Shown piece by piece: positions 3,289-50,794 of a stretch of 64,000 nt of DNA. The stretch is from Deltaproteobacteria bacterium (GTDB taxonomy: Bacteria > Myxococcota > Kuafuiibacteriia > Kuafuiibacteriales > Kuafuiibacteriaceae). Position numbers and translations under genes: made by a program. The notes under the pieces were generated by a model. That model ran no database searches. It saw only the letters and a program-made list of their open reading frames with translations, and was not told the origin of the DNA. The stretch's first letter is position 1; each line of letters starts with the position of its first letter. The stretch is from positions 32,001 to 96,000 of the forward strand of contig JAVJQW010000047.1 in assembly GCA_040218735.1 (NCBI GenBank), in the 5' to 3' direction.

Positions 3289-4929
3289 GTGTCGTTCCGG
3301 TCCATCGCAGTGCAGATCGCGGTCGCGCACATCGACCCGGCGTTGCTCCTCGATCTCGAGGGGCGCGTGCTCGCGTTCAATCGTGCGTTCTGCGAGTTGA
3401 CCGAGCTCCGCCCCCGCCAGCTTCAGCGCCGACTCGACGCCGTGGAGACCGCGTTCGAGCTCGTGGGCGGCGCCGAGGACCATGACCTGTTCCGGGTGGC
3501 CGTCGAACAGGGGCGGTCCGTCAACGCGCAGAAGCGCAACGTACCTTGCGCCGCGAACGAGCTCACGGAGGCCATGACGGGCCTGGTGCCGCTCCGCGAC
3601 GGCGACGGGCCGATCGACTGCGTCCTGTACACCGTCCGCGACCTCTCGGCGGAGGCACGAACGCAAGACAAGTTGCGCGTCATGATCGACCAGGAGCGCG
3701 CGCGCGCCGACGAGCTGGAGGCCCGCGTCCTCGAACGGACCCAAGAGCTGGAGGCCTCGCGCCGAGCAGCGGAGGCCGCAGCGCACAGCAAGAGCGAGTT
3801 CCTGGCGACGATGAGCCACGAGCTGCGGACGCCGATGAACGCGATCATGGGTCTCGTGTCGTTGGTGCTCGACGACGACCACCTGCAGGGGGACTCGCGC
3901 GACTCACTCAAGCTGGTCGAGGCCAGCTCCAAGGCGATGCTCGTGATGCTGAGCGACGTCCTCGACTTCTCGAAGATCGAAGCCGGACGCCTGGAGCTGG
4001 AATCCATCGCGTTCGATCTCCCGCTCCTCACGCGGCAGGTCGGTCGGTTGATGGGCGTGCAGGCGAGCTCGAAGGGGCTCGACTGGGGGGTTCAGATCGA
4101 CGACGCAATCGCGCGACACGTCGTGGGTGATCCGGTGCGGCTCCGGCAGGTCCTCACGAACCTCACGAACAACGCGGTCAAGTTCACGGAGTCCGGCGGC
4201 ATCTACGTGCGAATCGCCGCGGTCGAGGATCGTGTGCGCTTCGAGGTCGAGGACAGCGGCATCGGGATCTCGGCCGAGCACCAGGCGAAGATCTTCGACA
4301 AGTTCACGCAGGCCGAGAGCTCGACCACGCGCCGCTTCGGCGGCACGGGGCTGGGCCTCGCGATCTGTCGTCACCTCGTGGAGCTGATGGGCGGCCAGAT
4401 CCAGGTGAAGAGCGAGATCGGACGAGGCACGACGTTCTACTTCGACATCCCGATGGCCTCCGCCGACGCGCCGACCGAGACCACGCGGAAGGTGGCGCAC
4501 TCCGTCGAACACTTCGACCTCGACGTACTGCTCGTCGAGGACAACCCGGTGAATCAGAAGGTCGCCACGAAGATGCTCGAGCGCCTCGGGTGCCGCGCAC
4601 GAATCGCCGGGAGCGGCTACGAAGCCATCGCGGAGGCGCAGCACCACACCTTCGATCTGATCCTCATGGACTGCCAGATGCCGGGCATGGACGGCCTCGA
4701 GGCGACGCGCGAGATCCGGGCGCTCGGAGGGCGCTGCGCTCGGGTCCCGATCATCGCGCTCACCGCGAACGTGCAGGACGGCGTCCGCGAGCGATGCCTC
4801 GAGGTGGGCATGAACGACTACCTGTCGAAGCCCATCGATCGCGGCGCGCTCCGAACGACGATTCAGACCTGGAGCACGCCCGACGAAGATCGGCGCGCGC
4901 CCGGCGTCAGCGCAGCGGCCCACGAATGA
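3289..4929 (+). CDS. PAS-containing hybrid sensor histidine kinase/response regulator
   Basis: FLATMSHELRTPMN H-box, NLTNNAVKFT, DSGIGI, GGTGLGL, receiver LILMDCQMPGMDG. Confidence 0.95.
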   Translation: MSFRSIAVQIAVAHIDPALLLDLEGRVLAFNRAFCELTELRPRQLQRRLDAVETAFELVGGAEDHDLFRVAVEQGRSVNAQKRNVPCAANELTEAMTGLVPLRDGDGPIDCVLYTVRDLSAEARTQDKLRVMIDQERARADELEARVLERTQELEASRRAAEAAAHSKSEFLATMSHELRTPMNAIMGLVSLVLDDDHLQGDSRDSLKLVEASSKAMLVMLSDVLDFSKIEAGRLELESIAFDLPLLTRQVGRLMGVQASSKGLDWGVQIDDAIARHVVGDPVRLRQVLTNLTNNAVKFTESGGIYVRIAAVEDRVRFEVEDSGIGISAEHQAKIFDKFTQAESSTTRRFGGTGLGLAICRHLVELMGGQIQVKSEIGRGTTFYFDIPMASADAPTETTRKVAHSVEHFDLDVLLVEDNPVNQKVATKMLERLGCRARIAGSGYEAIAEAQHHTFDLILMDCQMPGMDGLEATREIRALGGRCARVPIIALTANVQDGVRERCLEVGMNDYLSKPIDRGALRTTIQTWSTPDEDRRAPGVSAAAHE

Positions 4930-35939: not shown

Positions 35940-36812
35940 GTGGAGATCGACCACGAGGCGCTCGCGTCCGCCATCGCGACGAAGCTCGGTATCGAAGAAA
36001 CGCCGGTGCGGTACAAGACCGGGTCCGTGCCCGTGTTCCGCTTCGGCGAGCGGGTGTTGAAGCTCTTTCGACCGAACGAGGAACGCTACATCGCGACCGA
36101 GCTCGCCGTGCTTCGAAGGCTGCATGGCCGCATCACGATCCCCACTCCCGAGGCCCTCGACACCGGCACGTTCGACGAATGGCACTACCTGCTGATGCGT
36201 CGAGTGGAAGGTGACCCGCTCGACGAGATCTGGTCCGACATCGATCCGCGGAGCCGCGTCGCGCTCATGCGTTCGCTCGGCGAGAGCATGGCGCAGTTCC
36301 ACGCGGTGCCGACCGACGATCTCGACGACGTCGCGAGTGACTGGCCCGCGTTCCTCGCCGAGTACCGACCGACCGTACGCAAGAAGCACCTCGACAAAGG
36401 CCTCGCCGAGCGGTGGGCGGACCAGCTCGATGCGTTCGTCGAACGCTGGTACGTCGAGGACGACCGACGCGCGCTGCTGCACACCGAGGTCATGCGACAG
36501 CACGTCATGGCCCAGCGCGACGCGGACGGCTGGCGACTGTCCGGCATCGTCGACTACGAGCCGTCGATGGTCGCGCCGCCGGACTACGAGCTCGCGTCGG
36601 TCGGCGTCTTCACGACCTGCGGAGAGCCGGGCCTCCTCGCCGCGTACCTCGAAGGCTACGGCACGCCGTGGGATGAATCGTTCCCCAACCGAATCATGGC
36701 GCAAGCCATCTTGCATCGCTACGGGAACCTGAAGTGGTACCTCGAACGCCTCGGCGACGCCGACGGCGCGACGACGCTCGAGGCGCTCGCCGCCGACTGG
36801 TTCAAACCGTAG
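35940..36812 (+). CDS. Aminoglycoside phosphotransferase (APH/choline kinase-like) family protein
   Basis: VLKLF, YLLMRRVEG, LLHTEVMRQH, GIVDYE. Confidence 0.8.
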   Translation: MEIDHEALASAIATKLGIEETPVRYKTGSVPVFRFGERVLKLFRPNEERYIATELAVLRRLHGRITIPTPEALDTGTFDEWHYLLMRRVEGDPLDEIWSDIDPRSRVALMRSLGESMAQFHAVPTDDLDDVASDWPAFLAEYRPTVRKKHLDKGLAERWADQLDAFVERWYVEDDRRALLHTEVMRQHVMAQRDADGWRLSGIVDYEPSMVAPPDYELASVGVFTTCGEPGLLAAYLEGYGTPWDESFPNRIMAQAILHRYGNLKWYLERLGDADGATTLEALAADWFKP

Positions 36813-38034
36813 CGGGGCGACGGATCCGTACGAGGCGCTCCGCGGGCGGGATTGGATCCGGAGCGTCGAACGACTCCTCGACGATCTCGAACCGGCCGTG
36901 GTCGAAGGGCCGCCCGGGCGCGCGCGCGACCGGGACGAGGCGCTCACGCCGCCCGAGCTTCGCGAGCTGTCGCGCGCGGTAGTGACAGAACGGATTGTTG
37001 CCGGGGCGCCCGAGAATCGCGTGCGCCGTGAACGTGCAACCTCCCTTGCAAACCTCGGCGAAGTCACAGGTACGGCAGAAGCCGTCGAGGTCATCGACCG
37101 AGCGACGGGTGTTGAAGGTCAGCCGGGTGCTCGCCCAGATCTCGGCCAACGATTCCGTGCGGAGGTTGCCGCCGACGTAGTCCGCGCTCTGCAGGGACGG
37201 ACAGCCCTTCACGTCGCCATTCGACTCGATGCCGAGCACGAACATCCCCGCCTGGCACCCCGACCAGTGATCGCGCCCCGTCGAATCGAGCGAACGGAGC
37301 AACGCCTCCTCCGGCCCGAAGTACCCGAGGTTATTGCCGGGCATGATGCGAACGCCATCTTCGAACGCGCGCGCCTTCAGCGACGCGACGCGCGGCAGGA
37401 CGTCGAGGAGATCCCACGGCTGGAGCAACAGGTCCGGACGATCCGCGGCACGCCCCAGCGGCGCCGTGATCTGAATCTGCCAAGCGACGATCCCCGCGGC
37501 GCGCAGCGCGTCGTAGAGCGGCTCGAGATCGGCGCGGTTGAGGCGATTCACGTTGATGTTGGACGCGACCGTGATCCCCGCGGCGCGCAGCGCACGCAGC
37601 GCCGAAAACGCCGCCGCGTAGGAACCGGGTCGACTCCGCATCCGATCGTGCGTCGCCTCCAGACCATCGATGCTCACCGACACCGAGTGCATCCCGGCCT
37701 CGGCCATCGCCGCAGCGAGCTCGGGCGTGATGCCGAGGCCGCCGGTCGTCATCGTCGGCCGAATACCGGCCTCCGCGAGCGCCGCGACGATGTCCAAGAA
37801 ACCTTCGTGGAGGTAGGCCTCACCGCCGATCAACACGACCTCGCGCGCACCCATCTCGGCGAGCTGCCGAACGACGTCGAGCGCCTCGTCGGTCGTCAGC
37901 TCGCCCTCGCGAGCGCGCATCGCACGCGAGCCGCAGTGCGTGCAGGCGTGGTCACACGCGAGCGTGAGCTCCCAGACCACGTAGGCGGGGTGCCGCTCGC
38001 GGACGACGTTCAATCGGCGGTGAGACACGGCCAT
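36802..38034 (-). CDS. Radical SAM/SPASM protein, PlpX/splicease-like (GDL/YG-motif associated)
   Basis: CDHACTHC; GNNLGYFGP; CQAG...GDVKGCPSL; CRTC-x5-C-x3-C...C SPASM. Confidence 0.85.
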   Translation of the reverse strand: MAVSHRRLNVVRERHPAYVVWELTLACDHACTHCGSRAMRAREGELTTDEALDVVRQLAEMGAREVVLIGGEAYLHEGFLDIVAALAEAGIRPTMTTGGLGITPELAAAMAEAGMHSVSVSIDGLEATHDRMRSRPGSYAAAFSALRALRAAGITVASNINVNRLNRADLEPLYDALRAAGIVAWQIQITAPLGRAADRPDLLLQPWDLLDVLPRVASLKARAFEDGVRIMPGNNLGYFGPEEALLRSLDSTGRDHWSGCQAGMFVLGIESNGDVKGCPSLQSADYVGGNLRTESLAEIWASTRLTFNTRRSVDDLDGFCRTCDFAEVCKGGCTFTAHAILGRPGNNPFCHYRARQLAKLGRRERLVPVARAPGRPFDHGRFEIVEESFDAPDPIPPAERLVRIRRPATV

Positions 38035-38420
38035 TACTCCTTCACGCCGTCGACGCCGTCGCAGTTCTGGTCGACCTCGTCGCCTTCGGGATCGTCGGCC
38101 GTGGGATAGACCATCGGATCCATGTCGGCGCAGTCGTCGGGCGTGCAGAAGCCGTCTTCGTCGAGGTCTTCTTCGCCGTCCGGGCACACCGCCGCGGCGA
38201 CGCAGTACGGATCTTCGGTGTCGTCGGGATCGCAGGGCGGGAGGCCGTAGCAGGCCATCAAGGTCATCGCGAGGAGGCCGCCGGTGCCGAGGCCCATGAC
38301 CCGGCGAGCGAGGCGCGGGAGCACGCGGGAGGCGACCGGCGTCGGCGCGCAGTTCGGGCACGCGGCGAGGTGAACAGGGATGAAGCCGTTGCAGTCGGAG
38401 CAGGAGGAGAGGTTCGTCAT
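38034..38420 (-). CDS. Small zinc-ribbon/membrane protein with CYG motif and acidic metal-binding repeat (putative rSAM substrate)
   Basis: CSDC-x10-CPNC, hydrophobic segment ending LMACYGLPP, D.DEDG...DC.D.DP..YP...DQNCDG; TAATG overlap with the rSAM gene. Confidence 0.75.
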   Translation of the reverse strand: MTNLSSCSDCNGFIPVHLAACPNCAPTPVASRVLPRLARRVMGLGTGGLLAMTLMACYGLPPCDPDDTEDPYCVAAAVCPDGEEDLDEDGFCTPDDCADMDPMVYPTADDPEGDEVDQNCDGVDGVKE

Positions 38421-38597
38421 GCGCGTTGCCCAACGCAACGACCGGGCCAACACCAACGGACGTGCCTCGGCGAGCGCCCAACGGGGCAGCGCTGTCGTAC
38501 AGCGGTGTGCCGTAGATTCACAGCGCTACCGTCGTTCCAGAGACGGACGGATCCGCGGCGTTTGTCGAGGCGCTGCGGCACGCGTTGTTCTAGGCGC

Positions 38598-42260: not shown

Positions 42261-43547
42261 ATGATGTTGTCCTTGGTCCTCGGTGCGGCGATCGCCGCGT
42301 CCCCTACGGCCGACCTCTCGAAGATTCAGTGGATGCACGACGACGCGCCCGGCGCGTTCGCGAAGGCGAAGAAGGCGAAGCAGCTCGTCGCCGTCGATGT
42401 GTGGGGGACGTGGTGTCACACGTGCCTGATGATGCAGAACTTCGCGTTGAAGGAGCGGCCGATGGCGAAGGTCGCGAACAAGCTCGTGTTCCTCGCGATG
42501 GAGTACGAGTCGGACAAGAACACCGACTTCTTCGCGAAGTTCCCGATCAACGCGTTCCCGACGTTCCTGGTGATCGACCCGAAGACCGAGAAGGTCGTCG
42601 CGCGCTGGGTGGGGTCCGGGACGTCCGAGCAGATGGCGGAGTTCTTCGCGACCGCGGACCCGAGCGACGATCGACCGTCGGTGCGGGCGCAGCGACTGAT
42701 CGCGAAGCGCAGCTACGCCGAGGCGATCGAGATCCTGGAGGGTGCGCTCGCGAAGGCCTCGGCGACGGAGCGGAACGCGCTCTACCCGCCGTACATCGAG
42801 GCGCTCTGGAAACACGACACGAAGGCCTGCGCGACCAAGGGCGCCGAGCACCTGGATCGATTCGACGATCGCACCGCGGCGGGGATCGATTCTATGCTGC
42901 TGCTCAGCTACTGCGCGACGGCGCTCGAAGATCCCAAGCCGCTCTACGGTCGGCTCGCGAAGCGCCTCGCGACGGTCGCCGCCAAACCTCCGAAGTCCTT
43001 GGAGGCGGACGAGGTCGCGGGAGTGATGCTCGGGCTCGCCGACGTCTACGACGCGCTCGGGGAGAAGAAGAACGGTGACGCCGCCGCGAAGAGGGCCGCG
43101 ACAGTGCTGGAGCAGGCGGCGAAGCGCGCGCCGTCGATCGCGGTGCGCACGACGTACGACTACCACCGGCTCCTCGCGTACGTGCGCCTCGGCCGTCACG
43201 CGGAGGCGCTGAAGATGCTGACCGCGTCCGAGAAAGCGCAGCCGGACGACTTCAACCACCCGCACCGCATCGCGTACCTGTACCTCGAGCTGGGCAAGAC
43301 GAAGGAGGGCCTCGCGGCGATCGATCGTGCGCTGAAGATCGGGTACGGCGGGCGGCGGCTGCGGCTGCACGCGACGAAGATCGATCTGCTCCTGAAGGCG
43401 AACCGCCTGACGGAGGCGCAGGCTCAGGTCGACGCCGCGAAGAAGGAGCTGGCTTCGATGAACCCCGCCAACACACGTCAGGGGTGGATCGACATGCTCG
43501 AGGCGCGCGCGAAGAAGGTCGAAGCGCAGCTCAAAAGCAGGGGATGA
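42261..43547 (+). CDS. Exported thioredoxin-domain/TPR protein
   Basis: Signal peptide; GTWCHTC, AFPTF; C-terminal TPR-like helices. Confidence 0.8.
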   Translation: MMLSLVLGAAIAASPTADLSKIQWMHDDAPGAFAKAKKAKQLVAVDVWGTWCHTCLMMQNFALKERPMAKVANKLVFLAMEYESDKNTDFFAKFPINAFPTFLVIDPKTEKVVARWVGSGTSEQMAEFFATADPSDDRPSVRAQRLIAKRSYAEAIEILEGALAKASATERNALYPPYIEALWKHDTKACATKGAEHLDRFDDRTAAGIDSMLLLSYCATALEDPKPLYGRLAKRLATVAAKPPKSLEADEVAGVMLGLADVYDALGEKKNGDAAAKRAATVLEQAAKRAPSIAVRTTYDYHRLLAYVRLGRHAEALKMLTASEKAQPDDFNHPHRIAYLYLELGKTKEGLAAIDRALKIGYGGRRLRLHATKIDLLLKANRLTEAQAQVDAAKKELASMNPANTRQGWIDMLEARAKKVEAQLKSRG

Positions 43548-44406
43548 GCCCCTTCTTCGGGAAGTAGTAGCCGAAGACAAAACACATCTCGTCGGCGGCC
43601 GAGGGCCCGTACTCGACGGTGAAGTCGTCGGCGTTGTCGTACGTGCACTCGAAGCGGACGACGTCACCGTTGGTCACGGGGATGGGGTCGTCGAAGAACT
43701 CGACCTCCGGGTCGTCCCAGCGATCGTTCGAATAGACCTGATCGGACTGACCGTCGCGAATCACCTGCGTGGTGGCGAGGACACCGCGCTGGTGAAAGTG
43801 TGATGACATCGAGAGCAGACCGATCGTGTCGCGGATCGTGCAGTCTTTCTGGATGGTGGTGCGTTCGTTGGGCGGGAGCGTGATCTCGAGCGTCGTGAAC
43901 CCGTAGAGGTCGACGTGGGTCCGCGCCGGCGCCTCGGCGGTGTGCAGATTGAGCGCGAACTGCTGCTCGGCCGGCGCGTCGGTCACGTTGATCCAGTGCA
44001 GCTGCATGATGATGAGGGTGTTCGGCGGGAGCGGGAACGCCATCCCGTCCGGGAAGCGGTAGTCGACCGCGCCCGACGAGCCGTCGACGATCGGGCGCGC
44101 GCCCACGAAGAGCTCGAACTCGTCGGGGCACGGACCGAAGCCATCCTCGCGCTCGAGATCCGACATGAAGATGTTGAAGTGGTGCTGCCCGGGGCGCTGG
44201 TTCGTCTGGAAGCGAACGACCTCCAGCTCCTCGGCGTTGTTCATGTTGAGGTGGTAGCAGCGCGTGCGCTCCTGCCCCGCGTCGAGGACGAAGGGCTCGG
44301 AGAGGAGCTGCACCCCGCGCTCGGGGGGTTCGAGCAGGCCGTCGTAGCCGGCGACGCCGCTGCCGCACGCCGACAGGAGGGCGACGGCGAAGATGCTGAC
44401 TCTCAT
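43531..44406 (-). CDS. Copper type II ascorbate-dependent monooxygenase-like lipoprotein (PHM/DBH fold)
   Basis: LSAC lipobox; HH (GQHHFN), MQLHW, HFH, DEMC copper-ligand motifs. Confidence 0.8.
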   Translation of the reverse strand: MRVSIFAVALLSACGSGVAGYDGLLEPPERGVQLLSEPFVLDAGQERTRCYHLNMNNAEELEVVRFQTNQRPGQHHFNIFMSDLEREDGFGPCPDEFELFVGARPIVDGSSGAVDYRFPDGMAFPLPPNTLIIMQLHWINVTDAPAEQQFALNLHTAEAPARTHVDLYGFTTLEITLPPNERTTIQKDCTIRDTIGLLSMSSHFHQRGVLATTQVIRDGQSDQVYSNDRWDDPEVEFFDDPIPVTNGDVVRFECTYDNADDFTVEYGPSAADEMCFVFGYYFPKKGLIPCF

Positions 44407-44767: not shown

Positions 44768-44833
44768 GATGTTCGTGCGTTCGACACCGAGCGCCGCGGG
44801 AGATGCGGCGTTCTCAAACGATAGGAGATCGAA

Positions 44834-45094
44834 ATGAAAGCACCGACCGTCAACGCGCGCGCGATCGACACTTGCGCGTCGTCCATGAACGCCGCGACGG
44901 CCCGTCCCGAGTTCGATGCCAAGGGCATCGAGACCTGTGCCTCGTCGTCCAATGCGCCGAGTGAGGCCGTGGCGAAAGCCGAGCCCGACTTCGAGCGTCA
45001 GCCCATCTCGACCTGCGCGTCGTCGATGTCTGCGCCCGGACAGATGGACTCGTTCACCACGGCGGCCGCGCGCACGCCGAACAAGTTCGTCTGA
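44834..45094 (+). CDS. Putative multi-core RiPP precursor peptide (3x IxTCASS)
   Basis: AGGAG RBS at 44823-44827; 86 aa; three P-x-[VF]-x4-I-x-TCASS-x-[NS]-A repeats; lies directly before the RRE and two rSAM genes. Confidence 0.85.
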   Translation: MKAPTVNARAIDTCASSMNAATARPEFDAKGIETCASSSNAPSEAVAKAEPDFERQPISTCASSMSAPGQMDSFTTAAARTPNKFV

Positions 45095-45102
45095 GCTTGG
45101 AC

Positions 45103-45145
45103 ACGTCCCCGCGGGTCGGCCACGGCCGCCCGCGGGGCGTCTTTT
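45103..45145 (+). terminator. GC-rich hairpin plus short T tract after the precursor (leaky terminator or mRNA stabiliser)
   Basis: acg(t)ccccgcggg(t)cggcc / ggccgcccgcggggcgt followed by CTTTT. Confidence 0.65.
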
Positions 45146-45162
45146 CGGAAAGGTCACAGGTC

Positions 45163-45678
45163 ATGCACGAACGAAGAACACCCCGGCTGATGCGCCACGT
45201 CCGCCTCCGCAAACGCGAGCCCGTCGCCTACGACGGGAAGAAGCGAACGATCTACGAGCTCAACGACGTCGCCGCCGCCATGTTGCGGCTCGCCGACGGC
45301 AAGAACGACGTCGACGTGATCGCCGAGGCGGTCGAGAGCGACGCCGAAACGGTCCGTGCCTTCATGGACGACTGCGCGGCGGCCGAGTTCGTCGAGTGGC
45401 TCGACGGCGACGCCGCGACCTACCGCGTGCCCGAGCTGGAGAAGGGCTTCCGGCTCCGCAGGAACGAGCCGATCGGGTACTCGGGGCAACAGTCGGCGAT
45501 CTTCAAGCTGAACCCGACCGCCTACGAGATCCTGCAGCAGGTCGACGGCGAGCGAGACGAAATGCAGATCGCGATTCGCTGCACGAGCGAGGAACAGGGC
45601 GGCGCCTACCTGGCGACGTGCCGACGGTTCCTGGAGCGCTGCGCTTCGGAAGGGATGGTCCGATGGAAGACCGCCTGA
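45163..45678 (+). CDS. Stand-alone tandem PqqD/RiPP recognition element (2 RRE domains)
   Basis: Internal duplication: IYELNDVAAAMLRLADGKNDVDVIA..VRAFMDDC / IFKLNPTAYEILQQVDGERDEMQIA..CRRFLERC, the typical PqqD LN..A..I...DG pattern. Confidence 0.85.
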   Translation: MHERRTPRLMRHVRLRKREPVAYDGKKRTIYELNDVAAAMLRLADGKNDVDVIAEAVESDAETVRAFMDDCAAAEFVEWLDGDAATYRVPELEKGFRLRRNEPIGYSGQQSAIFKLNPTAYEILQQVDGERDEMQIAIRCTSEEQGGAYLATCRRFLERCASEGMVRWKTA

Positions 45679-46619
45679 ACCTGTACGGCACGCCGCACCG
45701 CCTGCGCGACGACGAGCTGCTCGACGAGCTCACTTCTCCCTACTTCGCGACGTGGTACTGCACACGTCGCTGCAACCTGTCTTGCGCGCACTGCTTCGTC
45801 GACGTCACGTCGGGCGGGCGCGACCCGATCGACACCGAGACCGCGATGCACATGATCGATGGGCTCGTCGAAAACGACGTCTACCAGCTGGGCTTCGCCG
45901 GCGGAGAGCCGTTCCTTCGGCCGGACTTCTACACACTCGCGGCGTACGCGCGGGACCAGGGCCTGACGATCCAGGTCGCGACGAACGGCCTCTTCCTCGG
46001 CGACGAGCCGGTGGAGCGGCTCCTGGACGTGGGCTTTCGGTGCATCCAGATCAGCCTCGATGGCGCGACCGCGGCGAGCCACGACGTGCTGCGCGGCGCC
46101 GGTCGATTCGACGCGGCCCTCGAGGGCGTTCGCGCTGCGGTGCGCAAAGAGCTCCCGGTGGTGCTCGCGATCGCGGTGCACCGCGGGAACCTCGACGAGG
46201 TCGAAGCGATGGTCGACCTCGCGGAGCGCGAGGCGGCGATCATCCTGAAGGTGCAGCCGGTGTTCACGTCCTTCGCGTGGCGCGGCGAGGACGGCGCGCT
46301 GACGCCGGACGAGGTGCGCGACGTGGTCGCGCGGGCGCGTCGGCGAGCCCGGAGCGTAGAGCTGTCGATCCCACGGTGGGCGCAGATCCTCGAGGATCGC
46401 TCCGGCGAGCGCACCTGCGCGTCGACGCTCCGCAACGTGTCGATCCTCGACGACGGCCGGCTCTCCCTGTGTGACTTCGGTCCGGAGCACGCCTTCGGCG
46501 ACGTCACGCGGAACGACTTCTTCGACGAGTGGCGCCAGGTCGTGTCCCAGCACCACCTGCGGCAGCGGTGCGGGTGCACGCGGTACCTCGAAGCGGAACA
46601 GAAGGAGGTGGCGGCATGA
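45663..46619 (+). CDS. Radical SAM enzyme with short Twitch-like C-terminus
   Basis: CNLSCAHC, GGEP, TNG, QISLDG; C-x17-C and a terminal CGC only. Confidence 0.9.
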   Translation: MEDRLNLYGTPHRLRDDELLDELTSPYFATWYCTRRCNLSCAHCFVDVTSGGRDPIDTETAMHMIDGLVENDVYQLGFAGGEPFLRPDFYTLAAYARDQGLTIQVATNGLFLGDEPVERLLDVGFRCIQISLDGATAASHDVLRGAGRFDAALEGVRAAVRKELPVVLAIAVHRGNLDEVEAMVDLAEREAAIILKVQPVFTSFAWRGEDGALTPDEVRDVVARARRRARSVELSIPRWAQILEDRSGERTCASTLRNVSILDDGRLSLCDFGPEHAFGDVTRNDFFDEWRQVVSQHHLRQRCGCTRYLEAEQKEVAA

Positions 46620-47743
46620 ACCCGATCGCGCCCTACTCGGTCACCTGGTACATCACCAAGCGCTGCAACCTGACTTGCACGCACTGCTTCAACTACGAGC
46701 CCTGGGAGACACCGCGACGCGCGGACGAGGAGCTCGACTTCGACGACGCCAAGGCGATCGTCGACCAGCTCGCCGACGCGGGGGTGTTCAGCCTCGCGTT
46801 CGGCGGCGGCGAGCCGCTGACGCTCCCGTGGTTCGTCGACCTCATCGAATACTGCGACCAGGCTGGCATCGACACCTTCCTGTCGACGAACGGTGCGCTC
46901 CTCGATCGGCGAAAGGTCGAGCGCCTCGCGGCCGCCAACGTCACCGTCGTGCAACTCAGCCTCGACGGCGCGACGAAGGCGACCCACGACGCCATCCGCG
47001 GCCCTCGGAACTTCGACCACGTGATGCGCGCTGCCGGGCTGCTCGAGGAGCTGGGCATCGACGTGCAGTTCGCCTTCACGCTGATGAAGACGAACCAGGA
47101 CGAGATCGACGACCTCCTCGACCTCTGCATCGAACAGCGCGTCCCGATGCTGAAGCTCCAGCTGTTCCTCCCCACCGGACGTGCCGCGGAGGACCGCGCG
47201 CTCACCGTGCCCCCGGAGCAGTTTCGTGCGATCGTCGACAAGGTGAAGGCGTTCGAGCGCGCGTCCGGCGGCAAGCTCGCCGTCGACTACCCCTGCTTCA
47301 CCGGGCACATGGACGGCCTCGCGGAGTCCAACTGGCGCCTGGGCGAGAAGGCCACGAAGCTCTCGTGCGGCGCCGGCACCACCCGCGCCGTGATCTTCGA
47401 AGACGGCTCCGTCGGCACCTGCGAGTTCATGCGCGACGACAGCGCTTCCGACCTGCGCAAGGAGTCGTTCCTCGACGTGTGGCACGGCGGCCACGACGCC
47501 ATCGAACGCTGGCGGCGCCTGAACCTCGTCCACGGCAAGTGCGGCTCGTGCGGGTACCAGTCGGAGTGCGGCTACGGCTGCCGCGCCAACGCGTACTTCG
47601 CGGGCGGCGACTTCTACGGCGACGACCCGTCGTGCATCGCATCGCCCCCCGAGGGCGTCGAACACCCGTACTACGCAAAACAACGCGCCGTCCGAGCACC
47701 GCCGAACGGCCTCGTCCAAATCGGAGGGCTCGCCGCCCCGTGA
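46616..47743 (+). CDS. Radical SAM/SPASM peptide maturase (PqqE/MftC-like)
   Basis: CNLTCTHC, GGGEP, SLDG; C-x17-C, CxxC-x5-C-x3-C-x17-C. Confidence 0.92.
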   Translation: MNPIAPYSVTWYITKRCNLTCTHCFNYEPWETPRRADEELDFDDAKAIVDQLADAGVFSLAFGGGEPLTLPWFVDLIEYCDQAGIDTFLSTNGALLDRRKVERLAAANVTVVQLSLDGATKATHDAIRGPRNFDHVMRAAGLLEELGIDVQFAFTLMKTNQDEIDDLLDLCIEQRVPMLKLQLFLPTGRAAEDRALTVPPEQFRAIVDKVKAFERASGGKLAVDYPCFTGHMDGLAESNWRLGEKATKLSCGAGTTRAVIFEDGSVGTCEFMRDDSASDLRKESFLDVWHGGHDAIERWRRLNLVHGKCGSCGYQSECGYGCRANAYFAGGDFYGDDPSCIASPPEGVEHPYYAKQRAVRAPPNGLVQIGGLAAP

Positions 47744-48288
47744 TCCGAATCGACGACGGCGACCTCGTCCTCCGCAGCCCGACGCTCGACGACGCCCCGG
47801 TCATCTTCGCGGCGGTCGACGCCGACCGGGCACGGCTGCGCCGATGGCTGCCGTGGGTCGACCTCACGAAGACCCCCGACGACACCCGCGCGTTCGTGGA
47901 GCGGAGCCTCGCCGGGCTCGAAGCCGGCACCGCGATGGACCTGGTCCTCCTTCACGACGGCGCGTTCGCCGGGCTCGCCTCGCTCGTCGACATCTCGTCC
48001 GCGAACCGCCGCGCGATGATCGGCTACTGGATCTCGAGCGGCCGCGAAGGGCGCGGCCTCGTCACCCGGGCGGTGCAGCGGCTCCTCGCCCACGGCTTCG
48101 ACACCCTCGGCCTCGAACGCATCGGCCTGTACGCGGCGACCGACAACACACGCAGCCGCGCCGTCGCGGAGCGCTGCGGCCTCACGTTGGAGGGCGTGCT
48201 GCGCCACCACGAATTCGTCGACGACCGCTTCGTCGACCACGCCGTCTACGCGATCCTCGCCGAGGAGTGGCGCGATGCTCGGGGCTGA
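47740..48288 (+). CDS. RimJ/RimL-type GNAT N-acetyltransferase
   Basis: WLPWV, IGYWI...GRGLVT, NTRSRAVAERCG; GTGA overlap with the rSAM gene. Confidence 0.9.
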   Translation: MIRIDDGDLVLRSPTLDDAPVIFAAVDADRARLRRWLPWVDLTKTPDDTRAFVERSLAGLEAGTAMDLVLLHDGAFAGLASLVDISSANRRAMIGYWISSGREGRGLVTRAVQRLLAHGFDTLGLERIGLYAATDNTRSRAVAERCGLTLEGVLRHHEFVDDRFVDHAVYAILAEEWRDARG

Positions 48289-49639
48289 TCGGGTCGAGAC
48301 GATCCGCGCCGCGCACGCGCTCTCCGAGCACCGCGCCGAACGCCCCGCGCGCGCCCCCGCGCCACAGGACTGGTCGACGTGTGTCCCGCCGCTACACTTC
48401 CCCGGCGCGGAGCTGCTCCCGGCGACCGCGCGCCACCGAAACATCTCCGTCGCCGACACCCTCGCCGGGCGCTGCCCGCAAGCGCCGATCGACATCGGAA
48501 CGATCGCCCTGCGCACCCTCGGCGTGACGGTCGAACGGCGCCGCGGCTCGAGTCGCTGGTTCTGCCACGCCAACCCGTCGAGCGGGAACCTCCACCCCAC
48601 CGAGCTGTACGTCCTCGACGGTCGCGACGTCCTGCATTTCGCAGCGCGCGAAGGCGCGTTCGCGCGCATCGGCCGCCTCGAAGACGAAGCCCCCACGACG
48701 TTCGTCCTCACGCAGATCGCCGAGCGCCAGTGCTGGAAGTACGGCGACCGCGGCGTGCGCTACGCCGAGCTGGACCTCGGGCACGCCGTCGCGGGGCTGC
48801 GTCTCGCCGCCGCGAGTCACGGGCACGAACTGAGACCGATCGACGGCCTCTTCCTACGCGATGTCCTGGGACTCGACGGTCGCGAAGGCGAGACGATCGG
48901 CGCTGCGTTCACGACGGGGGCGCTCGACGCGATCACCGTCGAGCATCTCCTCCCCGCGTCGAAGCTGCGTGGCTTCGACTGGCCCGGCGCACGGAGCACG
49001 GCGCGCGCGATCGAACGTGCGCCGTTCACGACCTCGCGCGGGCACGCCCCTTCGGTCCGGATCGACGGTGACTTCGACGCGGTCGTCACCGCACGCCGCA
49101 GCGCCGCCGCTTTCGCCGACGCGCCGATCTCCCGCGACACCTTCGACCGCCTCCTGGAGTCCACGCTCGGGGGCAGCGCCTTCCTCGGGGCGGCGTCGGT
49201 CGACCTCCTCCTCTTCGTCCACCGCGTCGAAGGCCTCACGCCCGGCGCCTACCTCTTCCGTCGCAGCGACGCCGATCACTCGAACGCCTTCGACCCCGAC
49301 TTCGGCTACACCCCGGTCGGACCGCGACTGTACCGGCTCGACGAAGACGACGTCCGCGCCCACGCCCGCGCGGTGCACGTCGACCAAGCGGTCGCGAGCG
49401 ACGGCGCGTTCTGCCTGACGATGCTCGCGCCGCTCGACGAAACCCTCGCGACCGAAGGCGCCGGCGCCTACCGACGCCTCCACCTCGAAGCCGGCGCGAT
49501 CGGCCACGTGCTCTACCTCGGAGCGACCGCCCTCGGCCTCGGCGCCACGGGCATCGGCGCGTTCTACGACGTCGCGTTGAAACAGATGCTCGGGACCGAG
49601 CTCACGCCGCTGTACGGCTTCGCGGTGGGTGCGACCTGA
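48275..49639 (+). CDS. SagB/ThcOx-type nitroreductase-family flavoprotein (two domains)
   Basis: NPSSGNLHPTELY, WKYGDRGVRY..LDLGH, RRS, EAGAIGH.LYL...GIGAFYD. Confidence 0.85.
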   Translation: MLGADRVETIRAAHALSEHRAERPARAPAPQDWSTCVPPLHFPGAELLPATARHRNISVADTLAGRCPQAPIDIGTIALRTLGVTVERRRGSSRWFCHANPSSGNLHPTELYVLDGRDVLHFAAREGAFARIGRLEDEAPTTFVLTQIAERQCWKYGDRGVRYAELDLGHAVAGLRLAAASHGHELRPIDGLFLRDVLGLDGREGETIGAAFTTGALDAITVEHLLPASKLRGFDWPGARSTARAIERAPFTTSRGHAPSVRIDGDFDAVVTARRSAAAFADAPISRDTFDRLLESTLGGSAFLGAASVDLLLFVHRVEGLTPGAYLFRRSDADHSNAFDPDFGYTPVGPRLYRLDEDDVRAHARAVHVDQAVASDGAFCLTMLAPLDETLATEGAGAYRRLHLEAGAIGHVLYLGATALGLGATGIGAFYDVALKQMLGTELTPLYGFAVGAT

Positions 49640-49646
49640 GGTCGGC

Positions 49647-50042
49647 TCAACGACCGTTGCCGGTGTCGTTCCCCGAGTCGCGCACCCCGGCGTCCGGGCA
49701 GCCCGTGCCCCACGCCGCGAGGACCATGTTCAGGTCGCGCACGTCGACGACGCCGTCTTCGTTGGCGTCGCCTTCGGGCCCTGGCTCGCCCCACAGCTCC
49801 TGCACGAGATCGAGATCCACGCTGTCGACGCAGCCGTCGCTGTTGATGTCCGCGGCGTGGGACGGCCCGCCATCGCGGCGCGCGAACCCGCCGTCACGTG
49901 TGCCCGCATCGAGGAACCCCGCGTCGACTTCGTTGCCCGCGTCGCGCGCTTCGTCGAGCTCCTCGATTCGAGGATCCGGCTCGAGCACGATCGGCCCGCA
50001 CCCGGCCGTGAAGAGCAGCGCGACGATCAGAGCTCGAACCAC
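49647..50042 (-). CDS. Small lipoprotein with one dockerin-like (paired EF-hand) domain
   Basis: TAGC lipobox; DINSDGCVDSVDL...WG / DANEDGVVDVRDL...WGTGC. Confidence 0.75.
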   Translation of the reverse strand: MVRALIVALLFTAGCGPIVLEPDPRIEELDEARDAGNEVDAGFLDAGTRDGGFARRDGGPSHAADINSDGCVDSVDLDLVQELWGEPGPEGDANEDGVVDVRDLNMVLAAWGTGCPDAGVRDSGNDTGNGR

Positions 50043-50794
50043 TTCGTGAGCTCCTGCGCACGCGCGGTGCCGGGTTGGCGCGCGACGAGCTCGCGCGCAA
50101 TGACACGTCCGCGCTCCACACGATTCATGCGCGCGTAGCAGACGGCGAGGTAGTAGAGCGCTTCTTCTTGCAGGACCCCGCGAGGGAACGTGCGCCGGTA
50201 GCGCTCCAGCAGCTGCGCGGCGCGCTGCAGGTCTTCGCCCGCCGCGACGAGTGGAACGGCCTCCGAGATCCACGCCTCGCCTTCACTCGCGTCTTCGGGG
50301 AGACATCGCGTCGCGGACTGGCCCGCGGTCAGGAGCACAGCGTCGTAGCCCTCCGCTTCGACGCGCACCATGCCGTGGCGAACTTCGACGTCGGTGCAGA
50401 GTCCTTCGGTCTGCACTGTGAAACCCGTGCCGACGACCTCCACCAGCGCGGACGGTGTCCGCACGCGGAAGGGCGAGCGGTGCTTGCGCTTCGGCACCTC
50501 GAAGCTCGCCCGACCGCGCGCGAGGTAGAGCTCGGTCGCGACGGCGTCGTCGCGTTCGACGGTCAGCTCGCTTCCCGGGGCCTCTTCGATCGTGGGCGCC
50601 ACCGCGACCGGCGCTGCGACGCGCGGCGCGGGCACGAGCTGCCAGCACACCACGGCGGCCGCCATGGCGGTGGCGAGACCGAGCACCAGCGGCCCCGACC
50701 GCCGACGACGACGGGCGTGGATGCGTTCGAGGGAGCCGCGCACGATTCGGTCATGCACGTCGGGGCGCGGCGCGAGGCGAGCGAGGTGCCTCAT
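50027..50794 (-). CDS. FecR-domain anti-sigma factor with TPR tail
   Basis: Single TM; GRASFEV, FRVRTP..VEVVGTGF.V, V.HGMVRV; YRRTFPRG.L.EEA. Confidence 0.85.
   Translation of the reverse strand: MRHLARLAPRPDVHDRIVRGSLERIHARRRRRSGPLVLGLATAMAAAVVCWQLVPAPRVAAPVAVAPTIEEAPGSELTVERDDAVATELYLARGRASFEVPKRKHRSPFRVRTPSALVEVVGTGFTVQTEGLCTDVEVRHGMVRVEAEGYDAVLLTAGQSATRCLPEDASEGEAWISEAVPLVAAGEDLQRAAQLLERYRRTFPRGVLQEEALYYLAVCYARMNRVERGRVIARELVARQPGTARAQELTKWFEL

Follow-up and report, generated by a model that had tools for sequence, protein, structure and literature searches.

A very rare radical SAM peptide locus whose precursor consists of three repeated cassettes

The window analysed here, a 64,000-nt stretch of contig JAVJQW010000047.1 (assembly GCA_040218735.1) with a GC content of 68%, carries a gene for an 86-aa peptide (44834..45094, +) at the head of a six-gene operon. 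This open reading frame (ORF) is a genuine precursor gene, and its product has no classical leader, being built of three modular cassettes with freely varying linkers. Together with a discrete tandem RiPP recognition element (RRE) protein and two radical S-adenosylmethionine (SAM) enzymes encoded downstream, it constitutes a real, conserved, undescribed and very rare RRE-dependent radical SAM variant of the pathways for peptides synthesized ribosomally and modified post-translationally (RiPPs), probably a myxobacterial one. Based on sequence comparisons, we lean slightly towards a reading in which each cassette would combine a docking segment with a core and would be read by the tandem RRE protein.

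The usual description of RRE-dependent RiPP pathways has one leader that guides a single core or several. If true, a precursor consisting wholly of recognition-plus-core cassettes, read by a tandem RRE that two radical SAM enzymes and a flavoprotein share, would offer modular peptide engineering a compact design from nature, as well as a clean system for how one RRE hands its substrate to several enzymes.

The precursor gene and its relatives

The 86-aa ORF contains three in-frame units of 18 aa each, namely cassette 1 (PTVNARAIDTCASSMNAA, residues 4-21; 44843..44896, +), cassette 2 (PEFDAKGIETCASSSNAP, residues 25-42; 44906..44959, +) and cassette 3 (PDFERQPISTCASSMSAP, residues 51-68; 44984..45037, +). 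These are exactly the repeat strings, at the same positions, that an earlier sequence-only reading of this DNA had picked out. Only three residues lie ahead of unit 1, the linkers are TAR (3 aa) and SEAVAKAE (8 aa), and unit 3 is followed by the C-terminal tail GQMDSFTTAAARTPNKFV (45038..45091, +), which contains a DSFTT segment resembling the start of a unit. The peptide has no Tyr and is predicted to be disordered. Its ESM Atlas model reaches a predicted local distance difference test (pLDDT) value of 0.24, at which the structure rows are meaningless, and searching the ESM Atlas with the peptide brought up no feature match that could be used. A Shine-Dalgarno-like AGGAG, read directly from the DNA, is located 6 nt 5' of the precursor ATG (44823..44827, +).

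When the 86-aa peptide was shuffled 200,000 times, any 5-mer was present three times in 87 of the shuffles. In the six-frame translation of the window, CASS has eight further single occurrences, and the pattern P-x-[FV]-x4-I-x2-CASS is confined to the three units. Eight columns are identical across these units; six of them (P, T, C, A, the second S and A) use two codons, as the earlier reading had observed when it noted matching residues with differing codons, and the remaining two (I and the first S) use one codon throughout. Between units 1 and 2, the codon is the same at 2 of the 10 identical residues. The GC content at third codon positions (GC3) is 0.85 in the precursor frame and 0.52 and 0.63 in the other two plus-strand frames, with values of 0.89-0.93 for the downstream operon genes.

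Only three other instances of the system were found, with precursor identities of 98%, 79% and ~48%, the last of these in a Myxococcota MAG (metagenome-assembled genome). A search of 5.8 billion clusters returned two relatives of the precursor (P0001, 98%; P0002, 79%), and relatives of the first radical SAM enzyme (enzyme 1) stand at 94%, 80% and 51% identity, with none above ~40% thereafter. A genome scan with the enzyme-1 alignment, covering one genome per species (185,579 species genomes), yielded locus L001 from an unclassified MAG (80% in enzyme 1), locus L002 from a Myxococcota MAG (51%) and 78 loci at 25-39%. The latter were discarded as irrelevant because they lack the RRE subfamily of this operon, which a hidden Markov model (HMM) of 15 RRE sequences detected at 2 of the 80 loci; six sampled among the 78 scored best on AhbD/NirJ heme-pathway models. 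With two precursor relatives and two related loci, the system is extremely rare, and its ecological weight therefore looks small. A search of the literature, subscription-only papers and supplements excepted, found neither this cluster nor this enzyme combination described, nor any discrete tandem RRE paired with a precursor of repeated units.

The window, L001 and L002 agree in the order of the six genes and in the overlap of their stops and starts. In L002 the GC content is ~46-53%, the flanking genes are unlike those of the window, and the RRE protein is 40% identical. Its precursor gene (2004-2447) has a GGAGG 7 nt 5' of the ATG and encodes 147 aa with the units PTFTTRNIQTCASSLVAP, PEFSTRDIGTCASSMVAP and PSFTTKNIQNCASSMNSV, the first of which begins at residue 4. 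L001 has the same gataggagatcgaaATG as the window at its Shine-Dalgarno-like site.

The units were compared across four homologues, the window included, giving 12 units from effectively three independent lineages. P1, I8, C11, A12, S13 and S14 are invariant, position 6 is R, K or Q in all 12, and 11 units have A at position 17. At position 3, nine units have F and three have V, the latter being unit 1 of three homologues, and positions 2, 4, 5, 7 and 9 are freely variable, which gives the consensus P-x-[F/V]-x2-[R/K/Q]-x-I-x2-C-A-S-S-[M/L/S/T]-x-[A/S]-x. From the TCASS motif proposed earlier, CASS is retained in every unit, and the preceding T (position 10) drops out as a fixed residue, being present in 9/12. 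The sequence-only reading had also staked its motif on the conservation of P, F and I among homologues, and this is not refuted, with P and I in 12/12 and F in 9/12.

Outside the units, no conservation is seen. The N-terminus reads MKA, MKL or MQT, with unit 1 starting from residue 4 in the window, L001 and L002; the L002 linkers of 12 and 13 residues are unrelated to the 3 and 8 residues of the window; and the C-terminal tails of 18 aa (window) and 65 aa (L002) are likewise unrelated. A unique conserved N-terminal leader of the microviridin AMdnA type is absent.

Orthologous units of the window and L002 have 10, 11 and 8 of their 18 residues in common, with the same codon at 0/10, 3/11 and 4/8 of these, and within L002 units 2 and 3 use the same codon at 2/9 identical residues. 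Since identical residues mostly have different codons, it is selection on the peptide that maintains the motif, and not recent gene conversion. Selection on the protein had already been suggested, and the first units of the two loci, which have ten residues and not a single codon in common, bear it out. Compared to L001 (79% precursor identity), 39 codons are identical, 25 differ synonymously only and 21 non-synonymously, without any frameshift, and all non-synonymous changes inside units fall at variable positions.

DSFT is found once per precursor. It follows unit 3 in the window (45044-45058), P0001 and L001, where it reads MDSFTT, and precedes unit 3 in L002 as KDSFTR (~2169-2180, linker 2). 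This element (x-S-F-T-T like a unit start, without the Ile or CASS) may represent either a fourth cassette that has decayed or a recognition element in its own right. The precursor tail of L002 also contains six tandem copies of a 5-residue repeat (KDVQH, KDVQA or KNVQH; 2276-2365, 15-nt period), and nothing similar occurs in the window lineage.

The operon, the tandem RRE protein and the enzymes

The operon lies on the plus strand, and its overlapping stops and starts make it translationally coupled. The precursor is followed by a tandem PqqD-fold RRE protein, a radical SAM enzyme with a partial SPASM domain, a radical SAM/SPASM enzyme, a GNAT acetyltransferase and a SagB-type dehydrogenase. 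In the gap between the precursor and RRE genes, folding revealed a G+C-rich hairpin followed by TCTTTTC (45107..45149, +), which is terminator- or attenuator-like and includes a terminator-like site at 45127-45139. The 74-nt stretch around it (45092-45165) folds with -40.7 kcal/mol (z -3.86), and 0/200 shuffles were equally stable. A comparable inverted repeat is located behind the precursor stop in L001 (~3852-3900). That the position is kept points to attenuation separating the precursor from the genes for the enzymes, which, we infer, would favour a surplus of precursor transcript as in many RiPP operons.

Based on Pfam, AlphaFold2 and Foldseek, the RRE protein (171 aa; 45163..45678, +) consists of two PqqD-fold winged-helix domains (~1-81 and 90-168). 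It matches Pfam PqqD (PF05402) in two stretches with an E-value of 3.4e-12 and 46.9 bits against a cut-off of 23.4. The AlphaFold2 model, made from a 16-row alignment, has a pLDDT of 93.9 and shows two consecutive domains, each of four strands, three helices and one strand. By gathering score and winged-helix fold, the protein is a PqqD-fold RRE, and both of its halves keep the subfamily-invariant R, E, D-G and W. Among the Foldseek matches in the PDB, the best compact single-domain ones are leader-bound lasso B1 proteins (6jx3_B, TMt 0.73; 5v1u_D, 0.74); TbiB1, PqqD (5sxy, 28% identity), the clamp domains of TruD/LynD and PbtF are further listed, as is the cyanobactin oxidase ThcOx over ~200 columns. 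A profile of the RRE subfamily run against the PDB sequences has PqqD 5sxy as its nearest match (E 1.7e-6).

A search of 1.84 billion representatives with the RRE protein gave 17 matches at E <= 0.001, itself included. The others are the double-domain P0005 (40%), one 270-aa protein with eight short stretches and 14 proteins of 66-115 aa with a single domain (P0006-P0016, P0018-P0020), 12 of which align to domain 2 and two to domain 1. An NCBIfam scan of 14 RRE relatives (P0005 and 13 single-domain proteins) placed none at cut-off, and with tblastn nothing was found at E <= 0.01 in 72,556 plasmids.

Radical SAM enzyme 1 (318 aa; 45663..46619, +) carries its CxxxCxxC motif at C37/C41/C44, and enzyme 2 (375 aa; 46616..47743, +) at C17/C21/C24. 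As these motifs start at residues 37 and 17, there is no room for a fused RRE in either enzyme, and none is present in enzyme 1. Enzyme 2 combines CxxxCxxC with a seven-Cys SPASM pattern (251, 269, 309, 312, 318, 322 and 340), the hallmark of radical SAM/SPASM maturases, although its Pfam SPASM score of 21.4 is marginally under the cut-off of 21.5. Enzyme 1 shows this combination in part: because just four C-terminal Cys are found (252, 270, 303 and 305), its domain is considered a partial SPASM or twitch-like one. The top NCBIfam scores of the radical SAM enzymes are on the AhbD, NirJ2 and MftC models, and the cut-off was reached by none of the best 25 of 69 and the best 25 of 83 families for the two enzymes. 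The named maturase models covered include MftC, PqqE, ScmE/F, GeoRSP, SbtM, StsB and WgkB. Among plasmids, enzyme 2 is best matched (33% identity) on one from Microbulbifer (L081, CP128432.1, 6001-9745), in a different, small cluster of a radical SAM gene, a PqqD-family protein, a 42-aa ORF, two more radical SAM genes and a tautomerase.

The GNAT acetyltransferase (47740..48288, +) is RimL/RimJ-like (Pfam Acetyltransf_3, E 1.9e-27), and its best NCBIfam model is that of the L7/L12-serine acetyltransferase, with 83.9 bits against a cut-off of 184. The last gene (48275..49639, +) encodes a SagB-type flavin mononucleotide (FMN) dehydrogenase of 454 aa with a nitroreductase fold in two stretches (Pfam Nitroreductase, E 2.7e-22). 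With 86.4 bits on TIGR03605 against a cut-off of 78.4 it belongs to that family, on which its L002 orthologue scores 94.5 bits. The pairing of a SagB-type dehydrogenase with a YcaO cyclodehydratase, typical of thiazole/oxazole-modified microcins (TOMMs), is not seen. No YcaO was found among the 13 proteins scanned with Pfam and NCBIfam (36.8-49.6 kb), nor, judged by gene order and with not every L002 ORF scanned, in the six-gene block of L002. Since the enzyme set matches no curated maturase family, the chemistry on the invariant CASS may be new.

Proposed recognition of the units

In the mechanism that we consider somewhat the best bet, the N-terminal half of each cassette (P-x-aromatic-x4-I) would be the docking segment, lying as a strand against a winged-helix domain of the discrete tandem RRE protein. 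The latter would present the adjoining C-A-S-S to the pair of radical SAM enzymes, neither of which has an RRE. As for the chemistry, our working guess starts from a radical cross-link or oxidation centred on the Cys, after which flavin-dependent dehydrogenation and acetylation would come. The radical SAM enzymes would abstract an H-atom at or beside the Cys, leading to e.g. a thioether, another Cys-centred cross-link or an oxidation, after which the SagB-type flavoprotein would dehydrogenate and the GNAT protein acetylate.

Which half of the unit is bound, and that every unit is bound, we infer from the pattern of conservation. The enzymes need the discrete RRE protein and only the units are conserved in the substrate, so the RRE target would most simply lie inside each unit, which makes a docking motif per unit the most economical reading. 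The N-terminal half has spaced anchor residues with free positions between them and stands beside an invariant block, and by analogy this is usually how recognition sequences next to cores look. As there is no leader, the linkers vary and the tails are unrelated, it is unlikely that the RRE binds solely the unique tail. According to PMC13381572, leaders of the [Y/W]xxPx[V/L] type bind lasso and LPP B1-type RREs. The aromatic and aliphatic anchors of the units have the same i, i+5 spacing, and as a sequence pattern this aromatic-x4-aliphatic spacing fits such lasso-type leaders better than PqqA.

Several points weigh against docking on each unit. With three effectively independent lineages, the conservation of P, F and I cannot separate docking residues from product residues, and DSFT, present once per precursor, might serve as one additional recognition site. 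The three units face just two RRE domains, and in the solved ThcOx structure the second of two clamp domains was judged buried and inactive (PMC5108345). In the Foldseek search against the PDB, 0 of at least 500 RRE matches were at E <= 0.001. Finally, the conserved six-gene block contains no protease or exporter. A complex prediction of the tandem RRE protein with the whole precursor gave ipSAE values of 0.20 and 0.21 (mark 0.32), and, having been run without controls, is counted neither way.

A stronger form of the docking reading, that a single 18-residue unit is autonomous, is put forward only tentatively. One unit would then be enough both to dock on the tandem RRE and to be modified, and C-A-S-S would receive an undescribed Cys/Ser-centred modification from the SagB-type flavoprotein together with the two radical SAM enzymes. 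As the block has neither exporter nor protease, three copies of one small peptide-derived molecule may be released from each precursor. Autonomous units would make this precursor, leaderless and modular throughout, the first such case in RRE-dependent radical SAM RiPPs.

The whole 18-residue unit might instead be the core, with P, F/V and I as parts of the product (acceptors of a cross-link to the Cys sulfur, or a pharmacophore) and the RRE binding the CASS side or binding weakly and non-specifically. This alternative is unlikely, though it is the strongest of those considered. Conservation by itself fits product residues as well as docking residues, I8 is just three residues from the Cys, and radical SAM thioether formers join Cys to nearby residues. 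The Pfam and NCBIfam scans also made no cleavage site or protease evident. However, free positions between P, F and I beside an invariant CASS are the usual picture of anchors plus core, and the change of F to V tolerated in unit 1 of three homologues would be odd for a reacting residue.

It is less probable still that there is a single recognition site, either unit 1 with the N-terminus or DSFT, from which the enzymes distributively process three cores. DSFT does occur once in each precursor, a second clamp domain can be inactive, as the ThcOx structure indicates (PMC5108345), and one leader guiding three cores has a precedent in AMdnA, according to PMC5934393. Yet no unique segment is conserved, given an N-terminus of three residues and unrelated tails; DSFT changes place relative to unit 3, which it follows in the window lineage and precedes in L002; and P-x-F/V-x4-I is kept equally in all three units.

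The earlier reading had labelled the motif PqqA-like and derived the cassettes from PqqA, TCASS having taken over from the E-x3-Y core in a pathway to pyrroloquinoline quinone (PQQ). Such a descent is highly improbable. The best curated and best solved-sequence matches of the RRE protein are indeed PqqD; however, the PqqD fold is common to the RREs of many unrelated RiPP classes, so that by itself it says nothing on PQQ ancestry. The PqqD model scores 27.9 bits against a cut-off of 46 and the PqqE model 124.2 and 92.5 bits for the two enzymes against 381, neither PqqB nor PqqC is among the 13 neighbouring proteins scanned, and the window peptide, lacking Tyr, has no E-x3-Y core. The precursor matches no PqqA model either, with 0 Pfam and 0 NCBIfam families at E <= 0.01 and 0 Pfam families at E <= 10, a level at which the HMMER filters may drop very weak matches. 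For P0002, the same Pfam search at E <= 10 gave a single match (0.08) to an unrelated adhesin repeat.

As a reference, five PqqAs were taken from pqq operons on alphaproteobacterial plasmids, with pqqB-E annotated in four and pqqE alone in the fifth (L085). They have W-x-K-P-x3-E-[I/V]-x-[V/C/L]-G-x-E-I-N-x-Y in common, of which G-x-E-I-N-x-Y (5/5) is the defining feature and was also the retrieval filter, hence no independent result. The pattern P-x-hydrophobic-x4-hydrophobic loosely fits some of them (I/L/V at both positions in 2/5). Nevertheless, P+2 is T, A, L, V or I and in none of the five F, P+7 is V, C, C, L or C and in one of the five I/L, and the leader residues found in every PqqA (W, E and I/V at P-3, P+4 and P+5, respectively) occur in 0/12 units. 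Neither the label nor the proposed ancestry could thus be upheld. The P-x-F pattern probably derives from gammaproteobacterial PqqAs, which have an aromatic residue at P+2.

That the 86-aa ORF arose by chance in G+C-rich DNA and is no precursor is scarcely credible, since, although numerous spurious long ORFs overlap the region on both strands and CASS by itself arises by chance elsewhere in the window, its position, start context and triple motif are all kept in a locus of ~46-53% GC, its GC3 is that of a coding frame (0.85), and synonymous-only codon differences from L001 outnumber non-synonymous ones (25 against 21).

Nearest known systems and neighbouring genes

The PQQ pathway resembles this operon in having a small precursor directly upstream and a discrete PqqD-fold RRE that serves an RRE-less radical SAM/SPASM enzyme. 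Here, however, there are three cassettes instead of one core, a tandem instead of a single RRE and a second radical SAM enzyme, and where PqqB/PqqC would be expected, a GNAT protein and a SagB-type dehydrogenase are found. Mycofactocin (MftA/MftB/MftC) is similar in its discrete RRE and radical SAM/SPASM enzyme and in the lack of a dedicated exporter, and the MftC model belongs to those on which enzyme 2 scores best (166.6 bits, below the cut-off of 265). In contrast, the precursor described here is repeated and without a C-terminal Val-Tyr, and MftD and MftE types are absent.

Cyanobactin precursors of the PatE type carry flanking recognition sequences of their own for each core. They differ in their N-terminal leader, YcaO heterocyclase and PatA/PatG proteases, none of which was found among the 13 proteins scanned. 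According to PMC5108345, the oxidase ThcOx has two tandem peptide-clamp domains ahead of an FMN nitroreductase domain, i.e. the same domain set as the tandem RRE and SagB-type proteins of this operon, with the difference that the domains are fused there and separate here.

The RREs of the lasso/LPP B1 type provide the best single-domain structural match (TMt 0.73-0.74) and leaders with an i, i+5 anchor spacing. In the units, Pro stands before the aromatic residue and not between the anchors, the motif occurs three times, and the enzymes are unrelated. The microviridin system AMdnA/AMdnC also has three near-identical modification sites per polypeptide, with one N-terminal leader for all cores and an ATP-grasp ligase, as stated in PMC5934393, whereas there is no leader here and each unit has a conserved N-terminal half.

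Upstream of the operon, a divergently transcribed gene (43531-44352, -) encodes a copper type II monooxygenase C-terminal domain (Cu2_monoox_C, PF03712, 53 bits), adjoined by a gene for a thioredoxin-TPR protein (42261-43547, +). As neither neighbour is conserved in L002, both are probably unrelated to the operon. Further upstream, a second radical SAM/SPASM gene (36802-38052, -) scores 475.6 bits on the nif11-class maturase 3 model (cut-off 725) and 400.5 bits on the GDL-motif maturase model (cut-off 591.75). Its start is overlapped by a Cys-rich acidic ORF of 140 aa (38034-38456, -) in which a MopE-like metal-binding motif is weakly matched (E 1.2e-4, below cut-off), and the two are possibly a separate RiPP-like pair. 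As a clue to function, the copper-related neighbours (43531-44352 and 38034-38456) were set aside, since the L002 flanks differ. Directly 3' of the operon, an ORF known from the ORF list (49647-50273, -), which partly overlaps another minus-strand ORF (50027-50794), contains two D-x-N-x-D-G-x-V-D-type segments that are dockerin- or EF-hand-like by eye.

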